Of a DNA stretch of 64,000 nt, positions 44,100 through 50,378 are shown piece after piece. The position numbers were made by a program, and so were the translations under genes. Source of the DNA: Candidatus Dormiibacterota bacterium (GTDB taxonomy: Bacteria; Chloroflexota; Dormibacteria; Aeolococcales; Bog-877). Where the stretch lies: contig DAHUZL010000135.1 in the NCBI GenBank assembly GCA_027306655.1, positions 6,677 to 70,676 of the forward strand, in the 5' to 3' direction. How positions within the stretch are numbered: the first letter of the stretch is position 1; every line of letters begins with the position of its first letter. The notes below the pieces were generated by a model that saw nothing but the letters and a program-made list of their open reading frames with translations, was not told where the DNA came from and ran no database searches.

Positions 44100-45827
44100 A
44101 TGACGACGACCCCCACGCGCATGTGGCCGGGAGGCGGCCGCGAGGCGGTCGAGCTCTACACGCGCACCTACCGGACCGTGCTGCGCTCGTCGGGCGAGCT
44201 TCGGCTGCGGGTGCTGGAGTCGGCCCACCGCGGGATGCACTCCTCGCTGCACGCGCTCGCCGACGCCCCGTCGATCGACGCGGGCGCGCTCCTGTATGCG
44301 CTCCGGCGCCTGCCCCCGGTGACGATCGCCCTGCGCCGGGTGATCATGGGCCAGTCCGCCGCGCACATCCAGGCCGCGCTGGGGCGGTCGCTGGAGAACT
44401 GGCCGGTGGTGGCCGCCGCCGGACGGCGGCGGCGCTGGTGGTGGGATGCGGCCACCGGCACCCTCGCCGTGGCGCTGGCCAGCAGCTCCGATGTCGACGA
44501 CCTGGTCCCCACCCTGGTCGCGCTCCAGGTGGAGTGGAACAAGTCCCACCTGGCCCTGGTCGGACTGCGCCCACCCGGGCCCGACCCCGGGGGCGCCTCC
44601 GACATCGTTGCCGCCGCCCGCGCCGCGCTCGACATCGCCGCCGACGACTGGGGCCGGCTGGCGGACTGGTTCGGAGCCGACTTCGCGACCTGGCTGGCGA
44701 CCGTCGCCGCCCGCCCGCTCGACCTCGGGATCCAGCTGCTGGGCGGGACCCAGGTCGGCTACGCGCGGGAGACCCGGGCCTGGTGGGCGCCGATCGGGGC
44801 GACGCTGGCGGCCGAGGGCCTCGACGGCGGGCCCCTCTACTTCGTCAGCAGCAACGCCCACGCGCTGGTCAACCTGCTCTCGGGGGTGGCCCACGACCGG
44901 GCCGACGACATCGACCGCTGGGTGGAGCGATCCGGCGACCCCGAGCTGCATGCGATCCAGGCCGACCTGCGCCGCCCCGAGTCCCGGGGCTCGCGGGAGA
45001 ACTTCCTCTACTACGCGGCCCGGCGCTGGTTCGCCCACGACGCGGCGGCGAAGGCGGATCGCGACCGGACCGAGCGGGCGCGCGGCATCATCCACCTCGA
45101 TCCCCACACCGGCACCAACGTCGCCGCCCAGGTGATCGTGCTCGCCCGCCTGGACGCGGCGCGTCTCGACCCGCGCCTGGGGCTGGGCCCGGAGGAGGCG
45201 GCACGATTGGCCGGCTCCCCGGCGGTGATCGTCAACATCCAGTACCCCCTGGGCCAGGCCGCCTACCACATCCTGCGCCAGGTGCTGGAGGCCAACGAGC
45301 ACGTCGCCGGGGTGTACATCCTGGGCAAGGCGGCGACGCTGAACGCCGACGTCGGCGACGTGATGATCGCGGACGTCGTCCACGACGAGCACAGCGGCAA
45401 CACCTACTGGATCGACAACTGCTTCAGCTTCCAGGAGGTGGCGCCGTTCATGCGGATGGGCTCGGTGCTCGACCGCCAGCGCGCGGTCACGGTGCTGAGC
45501 ACCTTCCTGCAGAATCGGGCCTACCTCGAGTTCTACTACCGCGATGCCTACACGGTGGTGGAGATGGAGGCGGGCCCCTACCTGGGCGCCCTCTACGAGG
45601 CGGGCGAGGCGCAGCGATACCCCACCGGTCAGCAGGTCGACCTGACCCGGCCGTCGATCGACCTGGGGCTGATCCACTACGCGTCCGACACCCCCTACAC
45701 GCAGGCTCGCACGCTCGGCGCGCGCGGCCTCTCGTACCGCGGCATGGACGCGACCTATGCCGGCAGCCTCGCGATCGCGCGGCGGATCCTGGAGCGGTGC
45801 GGGGTGGTCGGGCAGGGCCGGGTGTGA
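44100..45827 (+). CDS. Conserved hypothetical protein. The C-terminal half resembles the nucleoside phosphorylase (PNP/UDP-like) fold.
   Basis: 575 aa, 'VIVNIQYPLGQAAYHILR...GVYILGKAATLNADVGDVMIADVVHDE'. No confident family call. Confidence 0.35.
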   Translation: MTTTPTRMWPGGGREAVELYTRTYRTVLRSSGELRLRVLESAHRGMHSSLHALADAPSIDAGALLYALRRLPPVTIALRRVIMGQSAAHIQAALGRSLENWPVVAAAGRRRRWWWDAATGTLAVALASSSDVDDLVPTLVALQVEWNKSHLALVGLRPPGPDPGGASDIVAAARAALDIAADDWGRLADWFGADFATWLATVAARPLDLGIQLLGGTQVGYARETRAWWAPIGATLAAEGLDGGPLYFVSSNAHALVNLLSGVAHDRADDIDRWVERSGDPELHAIQADLRRPESRGSRENFLYYAARRWFAHDAAAKADRDRTERARGIIHLDPHTGTNVAAQVIVLARLDAARLDPRLGLGPEEAARLAGSPAVIVNIQYPLGQAAYHILRQVLEANEHVAGVYILGKAATLNADVGDVMIADVVHDEHSGNTYWIDNCFSFQEVAPFMRMGSVLDRQRAVTVLSTFLQNRAYLEFYYRDAYTVVEMEAGPYLGALYEAGEAQRYPTGQQVDLTRPSIDLGLIHYASDTPYTQARTLGARGLSYRGMDATYAGSLAIARRILERCGVVGQGRV

Positions 45828-46177
45828 GCGTGCCCCTGGCGAGGGAGCGCTGCGAGGCCTGCAGCGGCCGGACCCCGCCGATCGGGGCCGACGAGCGGTC
45901 GGCCCTGCTCGCGGAGCTCGCTCCCGGGTGGACGGTCGCGGGCGCGCACCTGGGCCGGAGCGTGGCCACCCGGGCCTTCGCGGACGCCTTCGCACTGGCG
46001 ACCCGGATCGCGCTGGTGGCCGAGGCCGCCGGCCACCACCCCACCCTGACCGTGGGCTGGGGCCGGCTGGAGATCGACTGCACCACCCACGCCATCGGGG
46101 CCCTGTCGCGCAACGACTTCCGGCTGGCGGCCCGGATCGACCGCGCCGCCGGCTGGGCGGCCCGCGGGCCGGCCTGA
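45824..46177 (+). CDS. Pterin-4a-carbinolamine dehydratase (PCD/DCoH)
   Basis: 'GHHPTLTVGWGRLEIDCTTHAIGALSRNDFRLAARID'. The GTG start overlaps the upstream stop. The rest of the 834-aa ORF is rejected. Confidence 0.75.
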   Translation: MSVPLARERCEACSGRTPPIGADERSALLAELAPGWTVAGAHLGRSVATRAFADAFALATRIALVAEAAGHHPTLTVGWGRLEIDCTTHAIGALSRNDFRLAARIDRAAGWAARGPA

Positions 46178-46280
46178 CCGCAGCCCCGGGGGGCGGGGCT
46201 CGACCCGACTCGCCCCGGCGGGGGTGGCGGAGGGGGAGGAGGGGGGCACGGGTCCCCGACCGGGGCGCACGGGGAGAGCC

Positions 46281-46317
46281 GTTGGCAAGCTACACTTGCG
46301 TTTGGCAAGCGACACTT
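46281..46317 (+). promoter_or_regulatory. Two 17-bp direct repeats (gTTGGCAAGCtaCACTT / tTTGGCAAGCgaCACTT) spaced 20 bp apart, upstream of the ABC importer
   Basis: Read directly. 15/17 identical. The centre-to-centre spacing is two helical turns, as expected for a dimeric regulator operator. Confidence 0.4.
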
Positions 46318-46356
46318 TCCACTGGCCGACGGCGAAGTGGAGGGAGGGCGAGCGGG

Positions 46357-46413
46357 ATGGAGAGCGACACGTGCCACGGGTGGCGGGCGAAGCCGAGGGA
46401 GGGCGAGCGATGA
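46357..46413 (+). CDS. 18-codon upstream ORF (MESDTCHGWRAKPREGER) translationally coupled (ATGA) to the SBP gene
   Basis: An identical 15-nt purine-rich element, GAGGGAGGGCGAGCG, precedes both the uORF ATG (46340-46354) and the SBP ATG (46395-46409). Confidence 0.3.
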   Translation: MESDTCHGWRAKPREGER

Positions 46414-47408
46414 GGGACGGGTTGAGGCGCGCCGCGATCGCCGCCCTCGGCGGCGTCGCCGTGCTGGGGGCCGTCGCGCTCCCGCTCAGAGGCGCCCGTG
46501 CCAGCACCGTCAGTGCCGCGCACTCCGGCACCGCCGATGTCGCCTACGCCGCCTCCCTGGCCCTGGTCAACGACACCCGGGTCGGGCCGGCCTTCACCCG
46601 CGCCACCGGCTACGCCTACCAGGGCCGGGCGGGCGAGTCGGATGCCCTGGTCCAGGAGATCCGGTCGGGCGAGATCGCTCCCAACGTCCTCATGACGGTC
46701 GGCGGCGGGCCGATCGCCACCGTCGAGCCCCGCTTCACCCGCTGGTATGTGGAGGTGGCGGCCAGCCCGATCGTGGTCGCCTACTCCCCGCACAGCCGGT
46801 ATGCCGCCACCCTGCGGTCGATCGCGCGCGGCGCCACCCCGATCGCCCAGCTCTTCCGGCTCCTGGCCCGTCCCGGATTCCTGCTCGGCCGGACCGACCC
46901 GGCGACCGACCCCCAGGGGCGGGCCTTCGTGCTCATGGTCCGCCTCGCCCAGCGGCAGTTCCACCTTCCCGCCGGGACCGCCGCCGCCGACCTCGGAGGC
47001 CGGAATCCCTCGGCGCAGATCTTCGACGAGGCCTCCCTGGAGGCACGCCTGCAGGCCGGCCAGCTCGACTCCGCCAGCGCCTTCCGGTCGCAGGCGGTCC
47101 AGCTCCATCTCCCCTACATCACCCTTCCGACCGCCATCGACTTCGGCGATCCCGCCGACGCGGCGCTCTACGCCCGCGCGACCCTGCGGGTGGCCGGCAC
47201 GGTGTACCACGGGGAGCCGTTGGTGATCGACATCACCCAGCTGCGGGGGGCGGACCCGGCGGCCGCCATCGCCTTCGTCCGCTTCGTCCTCTCCCCAGCG
47301 GGCCGAGCCCTCTACCGGGGAGCCGGCTACACGCTCCTTCCCGAGCGGATCGTGGGGGATCGGGCCGCGGTCCCGGTGGCGGTCCGGTCGATGGTTGGCG
47401 GCCCGTAG
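46410..47408 (+). CDS. ABC transporter periplasmic substrate-binding protein (molybdate/tungstate/sulfate-type family)
   Basis: Signal peptide 'AALGGVAVLGAVALPL'. It is followed by a CysT/ModB-like permease and a TOBE-domain ATPase. Confidence 0.55.
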   Translation: MRDGLRRAAIAALGGVAVLGAVALPLRGARASTVSAAHSGTADVAYAASLALVNDTRVGPAFTRATGYAYQGRAGESDALVQEIRSGEIAPNVLMTVGGGPIATVEPRFTRWYVEVAASPIVVAYSPHSRYAATLRSIARGATPIAQLFRLLARPGFLLGRTDPATDPQGRAFVLMVRLAQRQFHLPAGTAAADLGGRNPSAQIFDEASLEARLQAGQLDSASAFRSQAVQLHLPYITLPTAIDFGDPADAALYARATLRVAGTVYHGEPLVIDITQLRGADPAAAIAFVRFVLSPAGRALYRGAGYTLLPERIVGDRAAVPVAVRSMVGGP

Positions 47409-48213
47409 CGCGAAGCCGCCGGCGGTGGTGCGCCGGGCCGCGCCCCAGACCGGTCTCGCGGTCGGGTCGGCCCTCCTGGTGTGGGCGGTCCTGCTCGTCC
47501 CGCTGGCGACGCTGGTCGCCCACAGCGCGCCCGGGACCGTGGTTCGGGCGCTGGGCGCTCCGGGCGCCCTGGACCCGCTCTGGGTGTCCTTGGGCGCCAG
47601 CGCGGCCGCGCTGGCCGTCATCGTGGGGGCGGGGACGCCGCTCGGCTGGCTCCTGGCCCGCGACCGGCTGCCGGCCCCCCGGGTGATCGAGGCGGGGCTG
47701 CTGGCCCCCCTCCTGATGCCGCCCTTGGTGATCGGCCTCCTGCTGGTGTTCATGGTGGGCCCCGCCACCCCGGTGGGCGAGCTGCTGCAGCGGGTCGGTC
47801 TCTCCGCCACCAACACCTTCCTGGCCGTCGTGATCGCCGAGATCTACGAGGCTGCGCCGTACTACGTGCTCGGGGTGCAGGCGGCGGTGGCGGGCGTCGA
47901 TCGGGAGCTGGAGGTGGAGGCGGAGCTGCTCGGAGACGGCGCCTGGCGGCGCTGGCGGCGCGTCACCCTGCCCCTGGCCGCCCCCGGGCTCGCCAGCGCG
48001 CTCGCGATCACCTGGGCCCGAGCCATCGGTGCCTTCGGAGCCGTCATCATCGTGGCCTACCATCCTTTCGGGCTCCCCCTCCAGATCTGGACGTCGCTGC
48101 AGGAGACCGGCCTCCCGTCCGCCCTCCCCTTCGCCCTGCTCCTGGTGGTGGTGGCCCTCCCGCTCCCGGTCGCCGCCTATGTCTGGAGCGCCCGTGCTCG
48201 ACGTCGACGTTGA
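47395..48213 (+). CDS. ABC transporter permease (CysTW/ModB family)
   Basis: EAA-like loop 'EAELLGDGAWRRWRRVTLPLAAPGL'. Six TM segments. Confidence 0.7.
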   Translation: MAARSAKPPAVVRRAAPQTGLAVGSALLVWAVLLVPLATLVAHSAPGTVVRALGAPGALDPLWVSLGASAAALAVIVGAGTPLGWLLARDRLPAPRVIEAGLLAPLLMPPLVIGLLLVFMVGPATPVGELLQRVGLSATNTFLAVVIAEIYEAAPYYVLGVQAAVAGVDRELEVEAELLGDGAWRRWRRVTLPLAAPGLASALAITWARAIGAFGAVIIVAYHPFGLPLQIWTSLQETGLPSALPFALLLVVVALPLPVAAYVWSARARRRR

Positions 48214-49240
48214 GGTGCCCCGGCGGCAGTTCCCGGTCGTCGCCGCGCTCACCGTGGGGGCGGGCGAGCGGCTCGCTCTCCACGGCCCCTCGGGGGCGGG
48301 CAAGACGACCGTCCTGGAGGCGATCGCCGGTCTGGCGACGGTGCGGCGGGGCACCATCCGGCTCGGACCCCGGGTGCTCACCCGGACCGATCCGCCGCCG
48401 CTCCAGGTCCCGGTGCGGGAGCGCCGGGTCGGGCTCCTCCGCCAGCGGGCGCTGCTCTTCCCCCACCTCACGGTGGCGCAGAACCTGGGCTATGCCGCGA
48501 CCGGGCCGGACGGCCGCCCCGGAGGGGCGGCGGGGGAGTGGCTCCGCACCCTGGTCGGGGTGCTGCGCCTGGAGGGGCTGCTCGCCGCCCGCCCCGCCGC
48601 CCTCTCGGGCGGCCAGGCGCAGCGGGCGGCGCTGGCCCGGGTGCTGGCCAGCGATCACGAGGTCCTCCTGCTCGACGAACCCCTGACCGGCCAGGACCCC
48701 GGTCTGCGCCACGAGCTCCGGGCCGCGCTCGGCGAGCTCCTCGCCCGACGTCCGATCCCGGCCATCCTCGTCAGCCACGACCTTGACGAGGCCCAGTCGT
48801 TCGGCGATAGGGTGGGCGTCCTCGACCAGGGCCGGCTGCTCCAGGTGGGGCCGCCCGACCATCTGGTTCGGCGGCCGGCGACCCGGCGGGTCGCCGAGCT
48901 GGTCGGGTACTCGGCGGTGGTGCCTGCCGCGCGCTGCGCCCGCGGGGCCGGACTCCCCGGCGGCTCGGTGGCGGTCCATCCCGACCGGGTGGTCCGGGGC
49001 GACCACCCGGACCGCGGGCCGGCGCTGCGCGGCCGCGTCGCCAGCGCGGCTCCGAGCGGGGCCGGGTGGACCATCGGGCTCCAGCTCGACGACGGGGCCC
49101 GGGCCCGGGTCCGGCTCCCGGACCGGGTGGCGCCGGGAGAGCCCCTCACCGTGACCCTGCTCGACCCCCCGTGCTTCGACCCGGACGGCGCCCTCGCCGA
49201 CGACCGGCGCCACCCCGCGGCCGCTGGTGCCGGTGGCTGA
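48179..49240 (+). CDS. ABC transporter ATP-binding protein with a C-terminal TOBE/Mop-like domain
   Basis: Walker A 'GPSGAGKTT', signature 'LSGGQAQRAALAR', Walker B 'LLLDEP'. The start is either the ATG at 48179 or the GTG at 48193. Confidence 0.8.
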   Translation: MSGAPVLDVDVEVPRRQFPVVAALTVGAGERLALHGPSGAGKTTVLEAIAGLATVRRGTIRLGPRVLTRTDPPPLQVPVRERRVGLLRQRALLFPHLTVAQNLGYAATGPDGRPGGAAGEWLRTLVGVLRLEGLLAARPAALSGGQAQRAALARVLASDHEVLLLDEPLTGQDPGLRHELRAALGELLARRPIPAILVSHDLDEAQSFGDRVGVLDQGRLLQVGPPDHLVRRPATRRVAELVGYSAVVPAARCARGAGLPGGSVAVHPDRVVRGDHPDRGPALRGRVASAAPSGAGWTIGLQLDDGARARVRLPDRVAPGEPLTVTLLDPPCFDPDGALADDRRHPAAAGAGG

Positions 49241-50378
49241 GCGCGCCCGGGTCCGGCTGCTCCGGCTGGCCCGGGGGCTCTCCCAGGACCAGCTGGCGCG
49301 GGAGGCGGGCATCTCGCGCCAGGCCGTCACCGGGATCGAGAGCGGACGCTGGGACCCCTCGATCCGGGTGGCCCTCGCGATCGCGCGGGCTCTCCGCGCC
49401 CCGGTGGAGGACCTGTTCGAGGGCCCGCCGCCCCTGTCGCCTGTCGAGGCGCTCCTCCCGCCCGGGACCGAGACGGCGGCCGGGGGTCGGCTGCGCCTCG
49501 CCGAGGTCGGGGGGCGCCTGGTCGCGCTGCCGCTCTCCGGCGCCGGCGCCTCGACGCTCGGCTTCGAGCCGGCCGACGCGCTGCGCGGCCCGGGCGAGCC
49601 GGTCCCCCTGAGGGCCCCGACGGAGTCCGCCGGCCCTCCGCCCCGGCGGGCGATGGTCCAGCCCCTCGGGCTGCGCCGACCCACCCTCCTCGTCGCCGGG
49701 TGCGACCCGGCGCTCGCCCTCCTGGCCGGACCCCTGCGTCAGCTCGACCCGCCGGTGGAGCTGGTGTGGTGGCCCTGCGGGAGCGTCCGGGCCCTGGCGC
49801 TGGCGGAAGCCGGGCTGGTGCACGTTGCGGGCGCCCACCTCCGAGACCGCGCCGGCTCCTACAACCGGGTCGGCCCCGCGACCGTGCTGGCGGCCGTCGG
49901 CGGGGAGATCGTGGGGTTCGCCCGCTGGCGCCAGGGGTGGGCCCTCTCACCCGAGCTGGGGCCGCTCGACGACCCGCTCGCCGCCGCCGCCCAGCGCGGT
50001 CTCCGGCTGGTCAACCGCGAGGCGGGCGCCGAGGCGCGCCGCCTCCTCGACCGCGAGCGCCGCCATCTCGGGATCGACCCCGGCCAGCTCTCCGGCTACC
50101 GCACCGAGCTGCCGGGGCATCTCCCGGTGGCGGCCGCTGTGGCGACCGGGCTGGCCGATCTCGGCATCACCACCGAGCCCGCCGCTCTCAGCCTGGGCCT
50201 CGCCTTCGACCCGCTCACCGCGGAGCGATTCGACCTCGTGCTCCCCCGCACCACCACCGGCTCGGTGGCGGTGCAGGGGCTTCTCCGCGTCCTCGGTGGG
50301 CGGGAGATGCGGGGCCAGCTGGAGGCGCTCCCCGGCTACGACGCCAGCGTCCTTGGGAGCGCGGTCGCCAGCTTCTGA
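49227..50378 (+). CDS. XRE-type HTH regulator fused to a periplasmic-binding-protein-like (substrate-binding) domain
   Basis: 'LRLARGLSQDQLAREAGISRQAVTGIESGRWDPSIRVALAIARAL' HTH, followed by about 290 aa resembling an SBP fold. It overlaps the ATPase end. Confidence 0.5.
   Translation: MPVAERARVRLLRLARGLSQDQLAREAGISRQAVTGIESGRWDPSIRVALAIARALRAPVEDLFEGPPPLSPVEALLPPGTETAAGGRLRLAEVGGRLVALPLSGAGASTLGFEPADALRGPGEPVPLRAPTESAGPPPRRAMVQPLGLRRPTLLVAGCDPALALLAGPLRQLDPPVELVWWPCGSVRALALAEAGLVHVAGAHLRDRAGSYNRVGPATVLAAVGGEIVGFARWRQGWALSPELGPLDDPLAAAAQRGLRLVNREAGAEARRLLDRERRHLGIDPGQLSGYRTELPGHLPVAAAVATGLADLGITTEPAALSLGLAFDPLTAERFDLVLPRTTTGSVAVQGLLRVLGGREMRGQLEALPGYDASVLGSAVASF

Follow-up and report, generated by a model that had tools for sequence, protein, structure and literature searches.

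What controls the genes of an ABC importer when the DNA ahead of them offers several candidates at once? The sequence analysed here (the window, 64,000 nucleotides in all) comes from an organism known only from metagenome assemblies. Directly upstream of an importer operon, positions 46281-46413 hold tandem repeats, a purine-rich element that occurs twice and a short upstream open reading frame (uORF) that runs into the first gene, so that an operator, a leader peptide and a riboswitch all come into question. We consider it likely that 46281-46319 is the operator of this wtpABC-like operon and is bound by the operon's own regulator, that the uORF and the purine-rich element are by-products of a duplication, and that there is no riboswitch.

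The importer operon and its regulator gene

The first gene (46410-47408, on the forward strand, as are those that follow) encodes a WtpA-like molybdate/tungstate solute-binding protein of 332 aa, with a signal peptide carrying RR and a Pfam SBP_bac_11 match at 2e-21. Against the NCBIfam WtpA models it scores 83.3 and 71.2 bits and does not reach their cut-offs (355 and 242.75); judged by its sequence, it is a relative of WtpA and not an equivalog, with a predicted ligand specificity. Its nearest solved structures are archaeal WtpA/ModA proteins (3cg3, 3cg1 and 2onk, 1e-17 to 1e-10), and the JGI name for its homologues is [quoted passage not shown] The ATG at 46410 has GGAGG 7 nt upstream and is followed by the RR signal peptide, and an independent gene call (P0001) returns the same 332 aa. 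We rejected longer versions with an upstream start (e.g., TTG 46302): the added in-frame sequence has no signal-peptide character.

Next come an ABC permease of ModB/WtpB type (47395-48213, its start uncertain between 47395 and 47428), which matches Mo_ABC_porter at 2e-44 and WtpB at 6e-38, and an ABC ATPase (48194-49240), which matches modC at 8e-47. A domain search places TOBE_2 at the C-terminus of the ATPase and on no other product of the operon. The preliminary description of this region had spoken of a molybdate-type transporter, and the WtpA-like binding protein together with the ModB/ModC-like permease and ATPase bears this out: the predicted membership of the operon in the WtpABC/ModABC class of molybdate/tungstate importers is supported.

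The last gene (49227-50378) encodes a regulator of 383 aa in which an XRE-type helix-turn-helix (HTH_3) is joined through a beta linker domain to a PBP_like (PF12727) sensor. In Pfam, PBP_like is matched at 9.3e-39 (residues 170-356) and HTH_3 at 1.1e-13, the N-terminal domain being HTH_3/HTH_31; a domain search of the regulator found no TOBE/Mop domain. The AF2 model (pLDDT 85.6) gives the C-terminal part a type-2 PBP fold that matches TupA, ModA, PstS and LysR effector domains. Because the LysR effector domains and PstS score level with TupA and ModA, the ligand is something that we only infer, and a sequence search for a solved homologue of the sensor domain found none. The nearest solved relatives of the HTH are CylR2 (4.4e-9), C.AhdI, DdrOC and a 434-derived protein. 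Across 40 regulators no variation is seen at the HTH residues S19, Q20, R31, Q32, E38 and G40, in keeping with a conserved operator. More than 2000 homologues of the regulator occur in metagenomes.

Palindromic boxes at the probable operon promoter

The two 17-bp repeats noticed earlier, R1 GTTGGCAAGCTACACTT (46281-46297) and R2 TTTGGCAAGCGACACTT (46301-46317), are present and are not random. They recur with a period of 20 bp and have 15/17 bases in common (15/16 positions where slippage is weighed, below); the 16-mer TTGGCAAGCNACACTT has exactly two copies in 64 kb, and allowing up to three mismatches adds one match, with 0.41 expected. What had been missed is that a palindrome, GCAAG-N5-CTTGC, lies inside each 17-mer. 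In box 1 (46285-46299, forward strand, the core of repeat 1) it is perfect, GCAAG-CTACA-CTTGC; box 2 (46305-46319, forward strand, the core of repeat 2) is one mismatch from a palindrome, GCAAG-CGACA-CTTTC. The array is a pair of 15-bp palindromes 20 bp apart, with inverted-repeat half-sites about 10 bp apart, and its four half-sites (GCAAG, CTTGC, GCAAG and CTTTC) are in 10-bp phase; since the half-site starts are spaced 10 bp, all of them face the same side of the helix. Such a geometry is what one would expect where an XRE-type helix-turn-helix protein binds as two dimers. The binding unit may be either GCAAG-N5-CTTGC, taken by two dimers, or the better-conserved central CTTGC-N5-GCAAG, taken by one dimer with flanking half-sites.

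We compared the window with 13 further independent loci collected from contigs encoding relatives; a pattern scan for the regulator gave six full-length relatives on genome contigs, the others being HTH-only, and three on metagenome contigs. In 12 of the 13 further loci (13/14 with the window) the array precedes the orthologous binding-protein gene. The 12-locus consensus reads GcaAGc...aCTTGCG.c.cGCAAGctAcgCTTGC, and the mean match over these loci is 3.4, 4.3, 4.8 and 4.1 of 5 bases for the successive half-sites, the left arm of box 2 (half-site h3) being the best-conserved element of the array; a fourteenth locus, L100, agrees with the pattern. Equivalents of box 1 are seen in L002, L004, L013, L092, L095 and others. 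Two loci (L006 and L012) have just one good box each, and one (L098, 1/14) has no recognisable motif upstream. The regulator gene adjoins the binding-protein gene region in 14/14 loci, in a sample in which every locus carries the regulator gene; this includes L095, where the regulator and binding-protein genes stand without an adjacent permease or ATPase gene.

The motif is also specific to its place. When all palindromic dyads were enumerated in 13 upstream regions, GCAA-N7-TTGC ranked first (7/13) and CTTGC-N5-GCAAG second (6/13). Each has 0 matches across 133 kb of flanking DNA, exact dyads are absent from the rest of the 64-kb window, and in 737 kb of unrelated loci they number 1 and 3; outside the operon promoter, more than 800 kb of control DNA is practically free of the motif. 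The tandem operator suggested in the preliminary description, which had named conservation in orthologous leaders as a check, can now be drawn more sharply as two palindromic boxes, kept in 12/13 further operons and nearly absent elsewhere. For this operator motif there appears to be no earlier description.

Could the repeats instead have arisen, like the adjoining 55-bp duplication, by local replication slippage and have no function? The likeness of R1 and R2 does extend past the half-sites, to a TTG prefix and a matching C-ACA spacer, and a repeat search puts three copies of the 20-nt unit in one group, so some recent local copying or conversion probably occurred. As an account of the boxes themselves, though, slippage is highly improbable, given that the half-sites and their 10-bp phase are kept among loci with unrelated spacers and flanks and that the motif is statistically promoter-specific.

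The boxes also coincide with the probable promoter. A putative -10 hexamer of the TANNNT type, TACACT (46291-46296, forward strand), lies inside box 1; at this position L002 also has TACACT, and L004 has TAGACT; a TANNNT within a box is found in the window and in L002, L004, L006, L013, L094, L095 and L096. Transcription would then start at about 46303-46305. In four of these relatives (L006, L094, L095 and L096) it is box 2 that carries the TANNNT, with an in-frame ATG 6-7 nt downstream, which implies leaderless mRNAs, and two of the orthologous binding-protein genes appear to be leaderless with mis-called starts. A consensus scan of the leader found no -35 element and no sigma-70 consensus promoter, so it is by the conserved TANNNT only that we place the promoter. 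Two other candidates were rejected. A sigma-70 promoter built on the TTGGCA of the repeats finds no match in the consensus scan; TTGGCA as a -35 has no -10 at 16-18 bp downstream, and it is not kept in L002 or L004. A terminator-like hairpin at 46178-46282 does not exceed shuffled sequence in stability (z = -0.66).

A duplicated leader and its short reading frame

The purine-rich element GAGGGAGGGCGAGCG does occur in two exact copies (46340-46354 and 46395-46409), as had been described. It is the 3' end of something larger that the first reading missed, a 55-bp tandem duplication on the forward strand. Its copies (46303-46354 and 46358-46409), recognised by a repeat search and shuffling, are identical at 41/52 positions (79%); 300 dinucleotide shuffles averaged 29 and peaked at 34, with 0/300 reaching 41/52. 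The first copy contains box 2, a spacer and the first Shine-Dalgarno element (the GAGGGAGGGCGAGCG at 46340-46354), and the second contains a degenerate box 2' and the functional Shine-Dalgarno of the binding-protein gene (46395-46409). Box 2' (GAGAG-CGACA-CGTGC, 46360-46374) has 3/10 half-site bases altered and belongs to a degenerate third repeat copy (46357-46376) that sits within the uORF.

The uORF itself (46357-46413, forward strand) has 18 codons, MESDTCHGWRAKPREGER, from the ATG at 46357 to the TGA at 46411-46413. The start and the overlap of its stop with the binding-protein ATG at 46410 (as ATGA) can be read just as the preliminary description had them; further, GGAGG lies 9 nt upstream as its Shine-Dalgarno, and its ATG is located at the junction of the duplication. 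The uORF is probably translatable, or translated, and termination-reinitiation would couple it to the binding-protein gene. It shares the ATGA stop/start overlap with translationally coupled uORFs and here has a Shine-Dalgarno of its own.

Duplication and uORF were found together in three assemblies only, all at least 99% identical: the window, L091 (a Logan assembly) and L099 (an NCBI MAG contig, 99.3% identical over 8.5 kb). Since L091 and L099 carry the same leader, the duplicated leader is no assembly artefact. The three carriers differ by about 0.45% overall, and the one intergenic base that differs lies outside the uORF. Relatives at about 79% nucleotide identity do not have the duplication.

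These observations suggest how the leader may have come about. The 55-bp segment from box 2 to the ribosome-binding site would have been tandemly duplicated in this species only. The 5' UTR would thereby have grown from about 50 nt to about 105 nt, with a third box, now decayed, and one more Shine-Dalgarno element left behind, while the ATG created at the junction would have opened an 18-codon frame that ends on the start codon of the binding-protein gene. The uORF is best read as evolutionarily young, a tolerated by-product rather than a sensor.

This is not how the frame was first understood. Its Cys-His-Gly-Trp core had suggested a regulatory leader peptide, whose stalling or translation would sense a metal or substrate and control translation of the binding protein. 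The good Shine-Dalgarno and the ATGA overlap would both suit such a peptide, and GC3 is highest in the uORF frame (17/18 against 11/18 and 12/18 in the other two); this excess, however, is not significant over three frames (binomial p ~0.06 at 72% GC, by our own estimate). The peptide is encoded by a copied box 2, spacer and Shine-Dalgarno, with its ATG at the junction. Conservation in orthologous leaders, which had been proposed as a check, ends with the three near-identical assemblies: the nearest relatives (L002 and L004) lack the uORF, it is absent or non-homologous in the wider set of L002, L004, L009, L092 and L012, and the small ORFs of other leaders are unrelated and have no Shine-Dalgarno. 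Among orthologues, known regulatory leader peptides are retained, whereas the peptide here is young and lineage-specific. Several relatives are apparently leaderless, so the family needs no leader peptide. We hold a sensing peptide to be very improbable. It is equally a long shot that the duplication created a new functional layer, in which a translated Cys/His uORF and a weak third operator would provide species-specific translational or roadblock control. What the duplication does offer, on the by-product reading, is a small and clean example of how a tandem copy of an operator and ribosome-binding site can make a coupled uORF de novo.

The leader had also been proposed to fold as a riboswitch, of the Moco/Wco motif or another class, that would sense the cofactor or the oxyanion. 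What speaks for it is context: Moco riboswitches precede molybdate transporters in other bacteria, and the Moco RNA motif (RF01055) stands upstream of Mo/W transport genes in many of them. Beyond this context the leader here shares nothing with that motif. The search with the Rfam Moco_RNA_motif and other models, which had been recommended, was negative: cmscan against Rfam over 45900-46700 with permissive filters (E <= 10) found no riboswitch, RF01055 included, its sole match being a chance miRNA within the upstream gene, on the other strand, and at Rfam gathering thresholds 0 families were found in the whole 64-kb window. The folding energy (MFE) of 46304-46425 is ordinary against shuffles (z = -0.84), and between relatives the leaders are unalignable except at the DNA boxes. 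With several orthologues apparently lacking any 5' UTR, we give a riboswitch practically no credence.

Proposed regulation and its known relatives

Boxes 1 and 2 are most likely bound by the regulator that the last gene of the operon (49227-50378) encodes. As box 1 holds the likely -10 and box 2 spans the likely transcription start, bound regulator would exclude RNA polymerase by promoter occlusion. ModE and other uptake regulators suggest by analogy that, when molybdate or tungstate is plentiful, the regulator in its oxyanion-loaded form would repress the operon, its own gene included. That the regulator here responds to Mo/W is something we infer from operon context only.

In XRE/Cro-cI repressors (CylR2, 434 repressor, C.AhdI and DdrO) the HTH is homologous to the one here and the operators are palindromic and sometimes tandem, made up of 14-16 bp palindromes with half-sites about 10 bp apart, as in our array. 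Adjacent XRE-type operators allow cooperative binding between dimers. These repressors have no PBP sensor, whereas here the PBP_like domain presumably gives oligomerisation and ligand control. TunR (Kazakov 2013) reportedly combines a XerC/D-like DNA-binding domain with a ModE-like sensor; given this architecture, we did not use it as a comparator.

The modABC operon of E. coli resembles the present one in being an oxyanion-uptake ABC operon whose own promoter is under the control of a cytoplasmic oxyanion-binding regulator (predicted here), through a palindromic operator that overlaps the transcription start (putative here). ModE bound to molybdate represses Mo uptake (PMC11672702, PMC11980592). 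The proteins are built differently: in ModE two Mop/TOBE domains accompany an N-terminal domain of winged-helix/LysR-like type, whereas the regulator here has an XRE HTH and a PBP_like domain and no Mop/TOBE. The operator sequences are unrelated, and here the regulator gene closes the transporter operon.

Closer in its sensor is TaoR (= TupR, DVU3193; Rajeev et al. 2019, cited in PMC10102598, PMC11980592 and PMC12327845), which stands for a family of tungstate-responsive regulators and is described as a tungstate-dependent regulator of a tungsten aldehyde oxidoreductase (PMC11980592). TaoR shares with our regulator the fusion of an HTH to a cytoplasmic PBP_like (PF12727-type) sensor, and a link to the regulation of tungstate/molybdate transport; its DNA-binding domain is, by description, HTH_17 (PMC11980592), against HTH_3/XRE with an extra beta domain here, and its transporter is TupABC, against a WtpA-like one here. 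MoeA-PBP fusions likewise tie PBP_like domains to Mo/W (PMC11733289). The DNA binding of TaoR in vitro was unaffected by tungstate (PMC12327845), so co-repressor logic is not guaranteed.

This last point bears on a further alternative, that the boxes are a true operator but that another transcription factor binds them, or that the cis-encoded regulator is an activator or anti-activator. Regulator and operator are linked by co-occurrence only, and TaoR-type PBP_like regulators are reported to act on their target genes in a tungstate-dependent way, with DNA binding that is tungstate-insensitive in vitro. Set against this, motif and regulator gene go together in 13/14 loci whose neighbours otherwise differ, the 10-bp half-site spacing is typical of XRE dimers, the nearest HTHs are those of CylR2 and other XRE repressors, and boxes that overlap the -10 and the transcription or translation start are in the position of a repressor site rather than an activator site. 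We regard this alternative as unlikely, though worth keeping in mind, and prefer repression by the operon's own regulator.

Repression of this sort would be unsurprising in kind, autoregulation of transporter operons by ligand-binding repressors being routine. Our searches of the literature on COG1910, PF12727 and XRE-type Mo regulators yielded no characterisation of the XRE-HTH + PBP_like architecture, and these proteins may be an uncharacterised but widespread family of Mo/W-responsive repressors, with a four-half-site GCAAG/CTTGC operator and often leaderless promoters, mainly in uncultured high-GC Actinomycetota-like lineages. If this is true, a large predicted molybdate/tungstate-sensing family that has so far been annotation only would gain a DNA recognition motif and a promoter architecture, which would aid both regulon prediction and start-codon annotation and would provide a concrete target for studying how Mo is sensed versus W.

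Operon and probable tandem operator

The leader lies between the gene for a 117-aa Pterin_4a protein, which ends at 46177, and a molybdate/tungstate (Mo/W) operon of four tightly overlapping genes. These encode a WtpA-like solute-binding protein (46410-47408; SBP_bac_11), whose nearest solved relatives are archaeal WtpA/ModA structures and whose homologues carry the database name [quoted passage not shown]; a ModB/WtpB-like permease (about 47395-48213, from family matches); an ABC ATPase with a C-terminal TOBE_2 domain (48194-49240); and a 383-aa regulator (49227-50378) with an XRE-type HTH_3 N-terminus and a PBP_like (PF12727) C-terminus. The TOBE_2 match is barely at the Pfam cut-off (21 bits); the domain could add oxyanion-dependent trans-inhibition of transport to transcriptional control. 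The Pterin_4a dehydratase-like gene overlaps a DUF6909 gene (575 aa, 623 bits) by 4 nt (44100-46177), and the same pair directly precedes the operon in the syntenic relative L002 (L002:2790-4861); the proximity of a pterin-related gene to a Mo/W importer may not be fortuitous.

On reading 45900-46700, we found every leader element of the preliminary description in place: two 17-mers, R1 GTTGGCAAGCTACACTT (46281-46297) and R2 TTTGGCAAGCGACACTT (46301-46317); a purine-rich 15-mer, GAGGGAGGGCGAGCG, with exactly two copies by exact-match search (46340-46354 and 46395-46409); and an upstream open reading frame (uORF) running from the ATG at 46357 to the TGA at 46411-46413 (product MESDTCHGWRAKPREGER), whose stop overlaps the binding-protein ATG (46410) as ATGA. 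Across the 64 kb there are two exact copies of the 16-mer TTGGCAAGCNACACTT and, allowing up to 3 mismatches, only one more match (0.41 expected). Each 17-mer harbours the palindrome GCAAG-N5-CTTGC, perfect in box 1 (46285-46299) and with one mismatch in box 2 (46305-46319).

The proposal that these repeats form a tandem operator gains support, as the palindromic boxes are kept in relatives and rare in control DNA. Protein look-ups and pattern scans yielded 13 further independent loci (L002, L004, L006, L009, L012, L013, L092, L094, L095, L096, L097, L098 and L100), and an HTH_3 + PBP_like regulator gene adjoins the binding-protein gene in all 13. The closest relatives, L002 and L004, have two boxes at the same 20-bp spacing as the window; their genes share about 79% nucleotide identity with it, and the intergenic regions are unalignable apart from the boxes. 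When every palindromic dyad of 4- and 5-mers (spacers 0-12) was counted without prior bias in 13 upstream regions, GCAA-N7-TTGC and CTTG-N7-CAAG came highest (7/13 regions each), followed by CTTGC-N5-GCAAG (6/13), against 0-1 matches in 133 kb of background; at most 0.02 regions were expected to carry them. The exact dyads occurred once and three times in 737 kb of unrelated loci and not at all in the rest of the window. Twelve arrays could be aligned (consensus GcaAGc...aCTTGCG.c.cGCAAGctAcgCTTGC), with 3.4, 4.3, 4.8 and 4.1 of 5 positions matching in the half-sites; L100 conforms to the pattern, and L098 is the sole locus with no recognisable motif. Four half-sites in 10-bp phase would suit recognition by a pair of XRE-type HTH dimers. 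R1 and R2 are more alike than the conserved half-sites demand, which suggests an extra local copying event in the window's lineage.

Several observations concern individual loci. In L098 (L098:4281-6461) the permease region is broken into odd gene calls, one of 70 aa in antisense orientation and one a fragment of 92 aa; the operon may be decaying or the assembly at fault. The binding-protein and regulator genes of L095 (L095:4501-6621) lie next to each other, with neither a permease nor an ATPase gene separating or flanking them, and the two-box operator is intact; thus the motif follows the binding-protein/regulator pair. For L002 / L010 (DATKRN010000016.1), the syntenic relative bears the label "Verrucomicrobiia bacterium" and another binding-protein homologue "Candidatus Nitrosotalea sp."; the remaining relatives are assigned to Actinomycetes, Acidimicrobiales or Streptosporangiaceae, and errors of binning or taxonomy would seem to account for the two odd labels. 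In the stretch separating the operator from the Pterin_4a gene lies a G/A-rich tract, GGCGGAGGGGGAGGAGGGGGGCACGGG (46226-46252), with a G-run that differs by assembly, being G5 in the window and G6 in L091; the inverted repeat around it (46211-46224/46254-46267) shows no excess folding stability over shuffled sequence (z = -0.66).

Probable promoter overlap and apparently leaderless relatives

Most loci carry a TANNNT hexamer inside a box: box 1 in the window (TACACT, 46291-46296), L002 (TACACT) and L004 (TAGACT), and box 2 in L006 (TACTCT), L094 (TACCGT), L095 (TACAGT), L096 and L013 (both TATGCT). In four of these (L094:51-71, L095:4371-4392, L006:4982-5003 and L096:4481-4503) an ATG in the binding-protein frame lies 6-7 nt 3' of the box-2 hexamer and yields a sensible signal-peptide N-terminus. 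Leaderless actinobacterial mRNAs characteristically show such a hexamer with an ATG shortly after it, and several orthologues of the binding-protein gene seem to be transcribed without a leader. The called starts of L094 and L095, downstream GTG codons (141 and 4501), are probably mis-called, because they deprive the signal peptide of its charged n-region or RR motif. Since a consensus scan detected no sigma-70 promoter, it is from TANNNT that we infer an overlap of the operator with the -10 element and transcription start; such an overlap would suggest repression by promoter occlusion.

Tandem duplication and the uORF

A repeat search showed that the 15-mer forms the end of a tandem duplication of 55 bp (46303-46354 vs 46358-46409, 41/52 identical), which also carries a third, degraded version of the 20-nt repeat unit (46357-46376). 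When the intergenic region was shuffled 300 times with dinucleotides preserved, the best direct repeat of 52 nt had 29 matches on average and at most 34. The identical leader, bar one G-run indel, is present in L091 (Logan assembly of SRR10333328), and L099 (NCBI MAG GCA_027313325.1), 99.3% identical over 8.5 kb, differs from the window's intergenic region by one substitution. Because the leader recurs in both, the duplication is real and fixed in the window's species-level lineage.

In L002 and L004, boxes 1 and 2 are followed by a short spacer, a single GGAGG-type ribosome-binding site and the ATG. This arrangement is the ancestral one; in the window's lineage the 55-bp segment that spans box 2 and the ribosome-binding site was tandemly duplicated, leaving its first ribosome-binding site 5' of an ATG. 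That ATG lies at the duplication junction (46357, the counterpart of T 46302 in the first copy); the uORF codons are a translated decayed box 2 (GAGAG-CGACA-CGTGC, 46360-46374) plus spacer, the final codons are the second ribosome-binding site, and the frame ends at the first stop met, by chance the TGA of ATGA.

Translation of the uORF, coupled to that of the binding-protein gene, is quite plausible given the GGAGG 9 nt 5' of its ATG. Its suggested role as a sensing leader peptide gains no support: it is missing from relatives, where the small ORFs of orthologous leaders are unrelated and lack a Shine-Dalgarno sequence. Its carriers (window, L091 and L099) are too alike to reveal selection, and its GC3 of 17/18 is a non-significant excess once corrected for frames. 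A leader ORF in L002 (4981-5022; MGEEGGACRVSAG) also ends in a TGA overlapping an in-frame binding-protein ATG as ATGA, with neither a Shine-Dalgarno sequence nor similarity to the window's uORF; GC-rich leaders thus readily give rise to "coupled" ORFs.

A riboswitch had also been proposed, possibly of the Moco type; no Rfam model, the Moco motif included, matched 45900-46700 at E <= 10, no family reached gathering scores anywhere in the window, and the putative 5' UTR folded no better than shuffles (z = -0.84). Judged from sequence, the region is predicted to be the normal promoter-operator of an autoregulated transporter operon, in which a lineage-specific tandem duplication mimics a "coupled uORF"; the features that had seemed unusual are thereby explained.

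The regulator and its ligand

Homologues of the regulator number >2000 in metagenomes, some named by JGI [quoted passage not shown] In its AlphaFold2 model (pLDDT 85.6) a small beta domain links an HTH to a type-2 periplasmic-binding-protein fold. Foldseek matched the C-terminal domain to LysR effector domains, TupA (3lr1, 5my5), ModA (8k8l, 7t4z) and PstS, so that the modelled fold is consistent with an oxyanion sensor, yet not specific for one. Among solved structures the HTH is closest to CylR2, C.AhdI, DdrO and a 434-derived repressor, and HTH residues are invariant among 40 family members, in line with an invariant operator. The all-beta domain (residues about 73-146 of the model, between HTH and PBP_like) is covered by no Pfam family and might serve in dimerisation.

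From the transporter family, from the PBP_like domains that occur in TaoR-type tungstate regulators (PMC11980592; PMC10102598) and in TupA-linked MoeA-PBP fusions (PMC11733289), and from the precedent of ModE for Mo-dependent co-repression (PMC11672702), we infer Mo/W-dependent co-repression by analogy. Tungstate had no effect on TaoR DNA binding in vitro (PMC12327845), so analogy does not fix the sign and mechanism of ligand control. The likeness to ModE/mod and TaoR/tup control of Mo/W uptake is functional, and the regulator belongs to neither family: unlike ModE it lacks a Mop/TOBE domain, and it has an XRE HTH, whereas TaoR is described as having HTH_17. Annotation pipelines recognise the XRE-HTH + PBP_like architecture; the literature searched, with key primary papers outside its reach, held no experimental or comparative account of its operator. 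The operator motif and leaderless promoter architecture are a useful new annotation for this uncharacterised regulator family.
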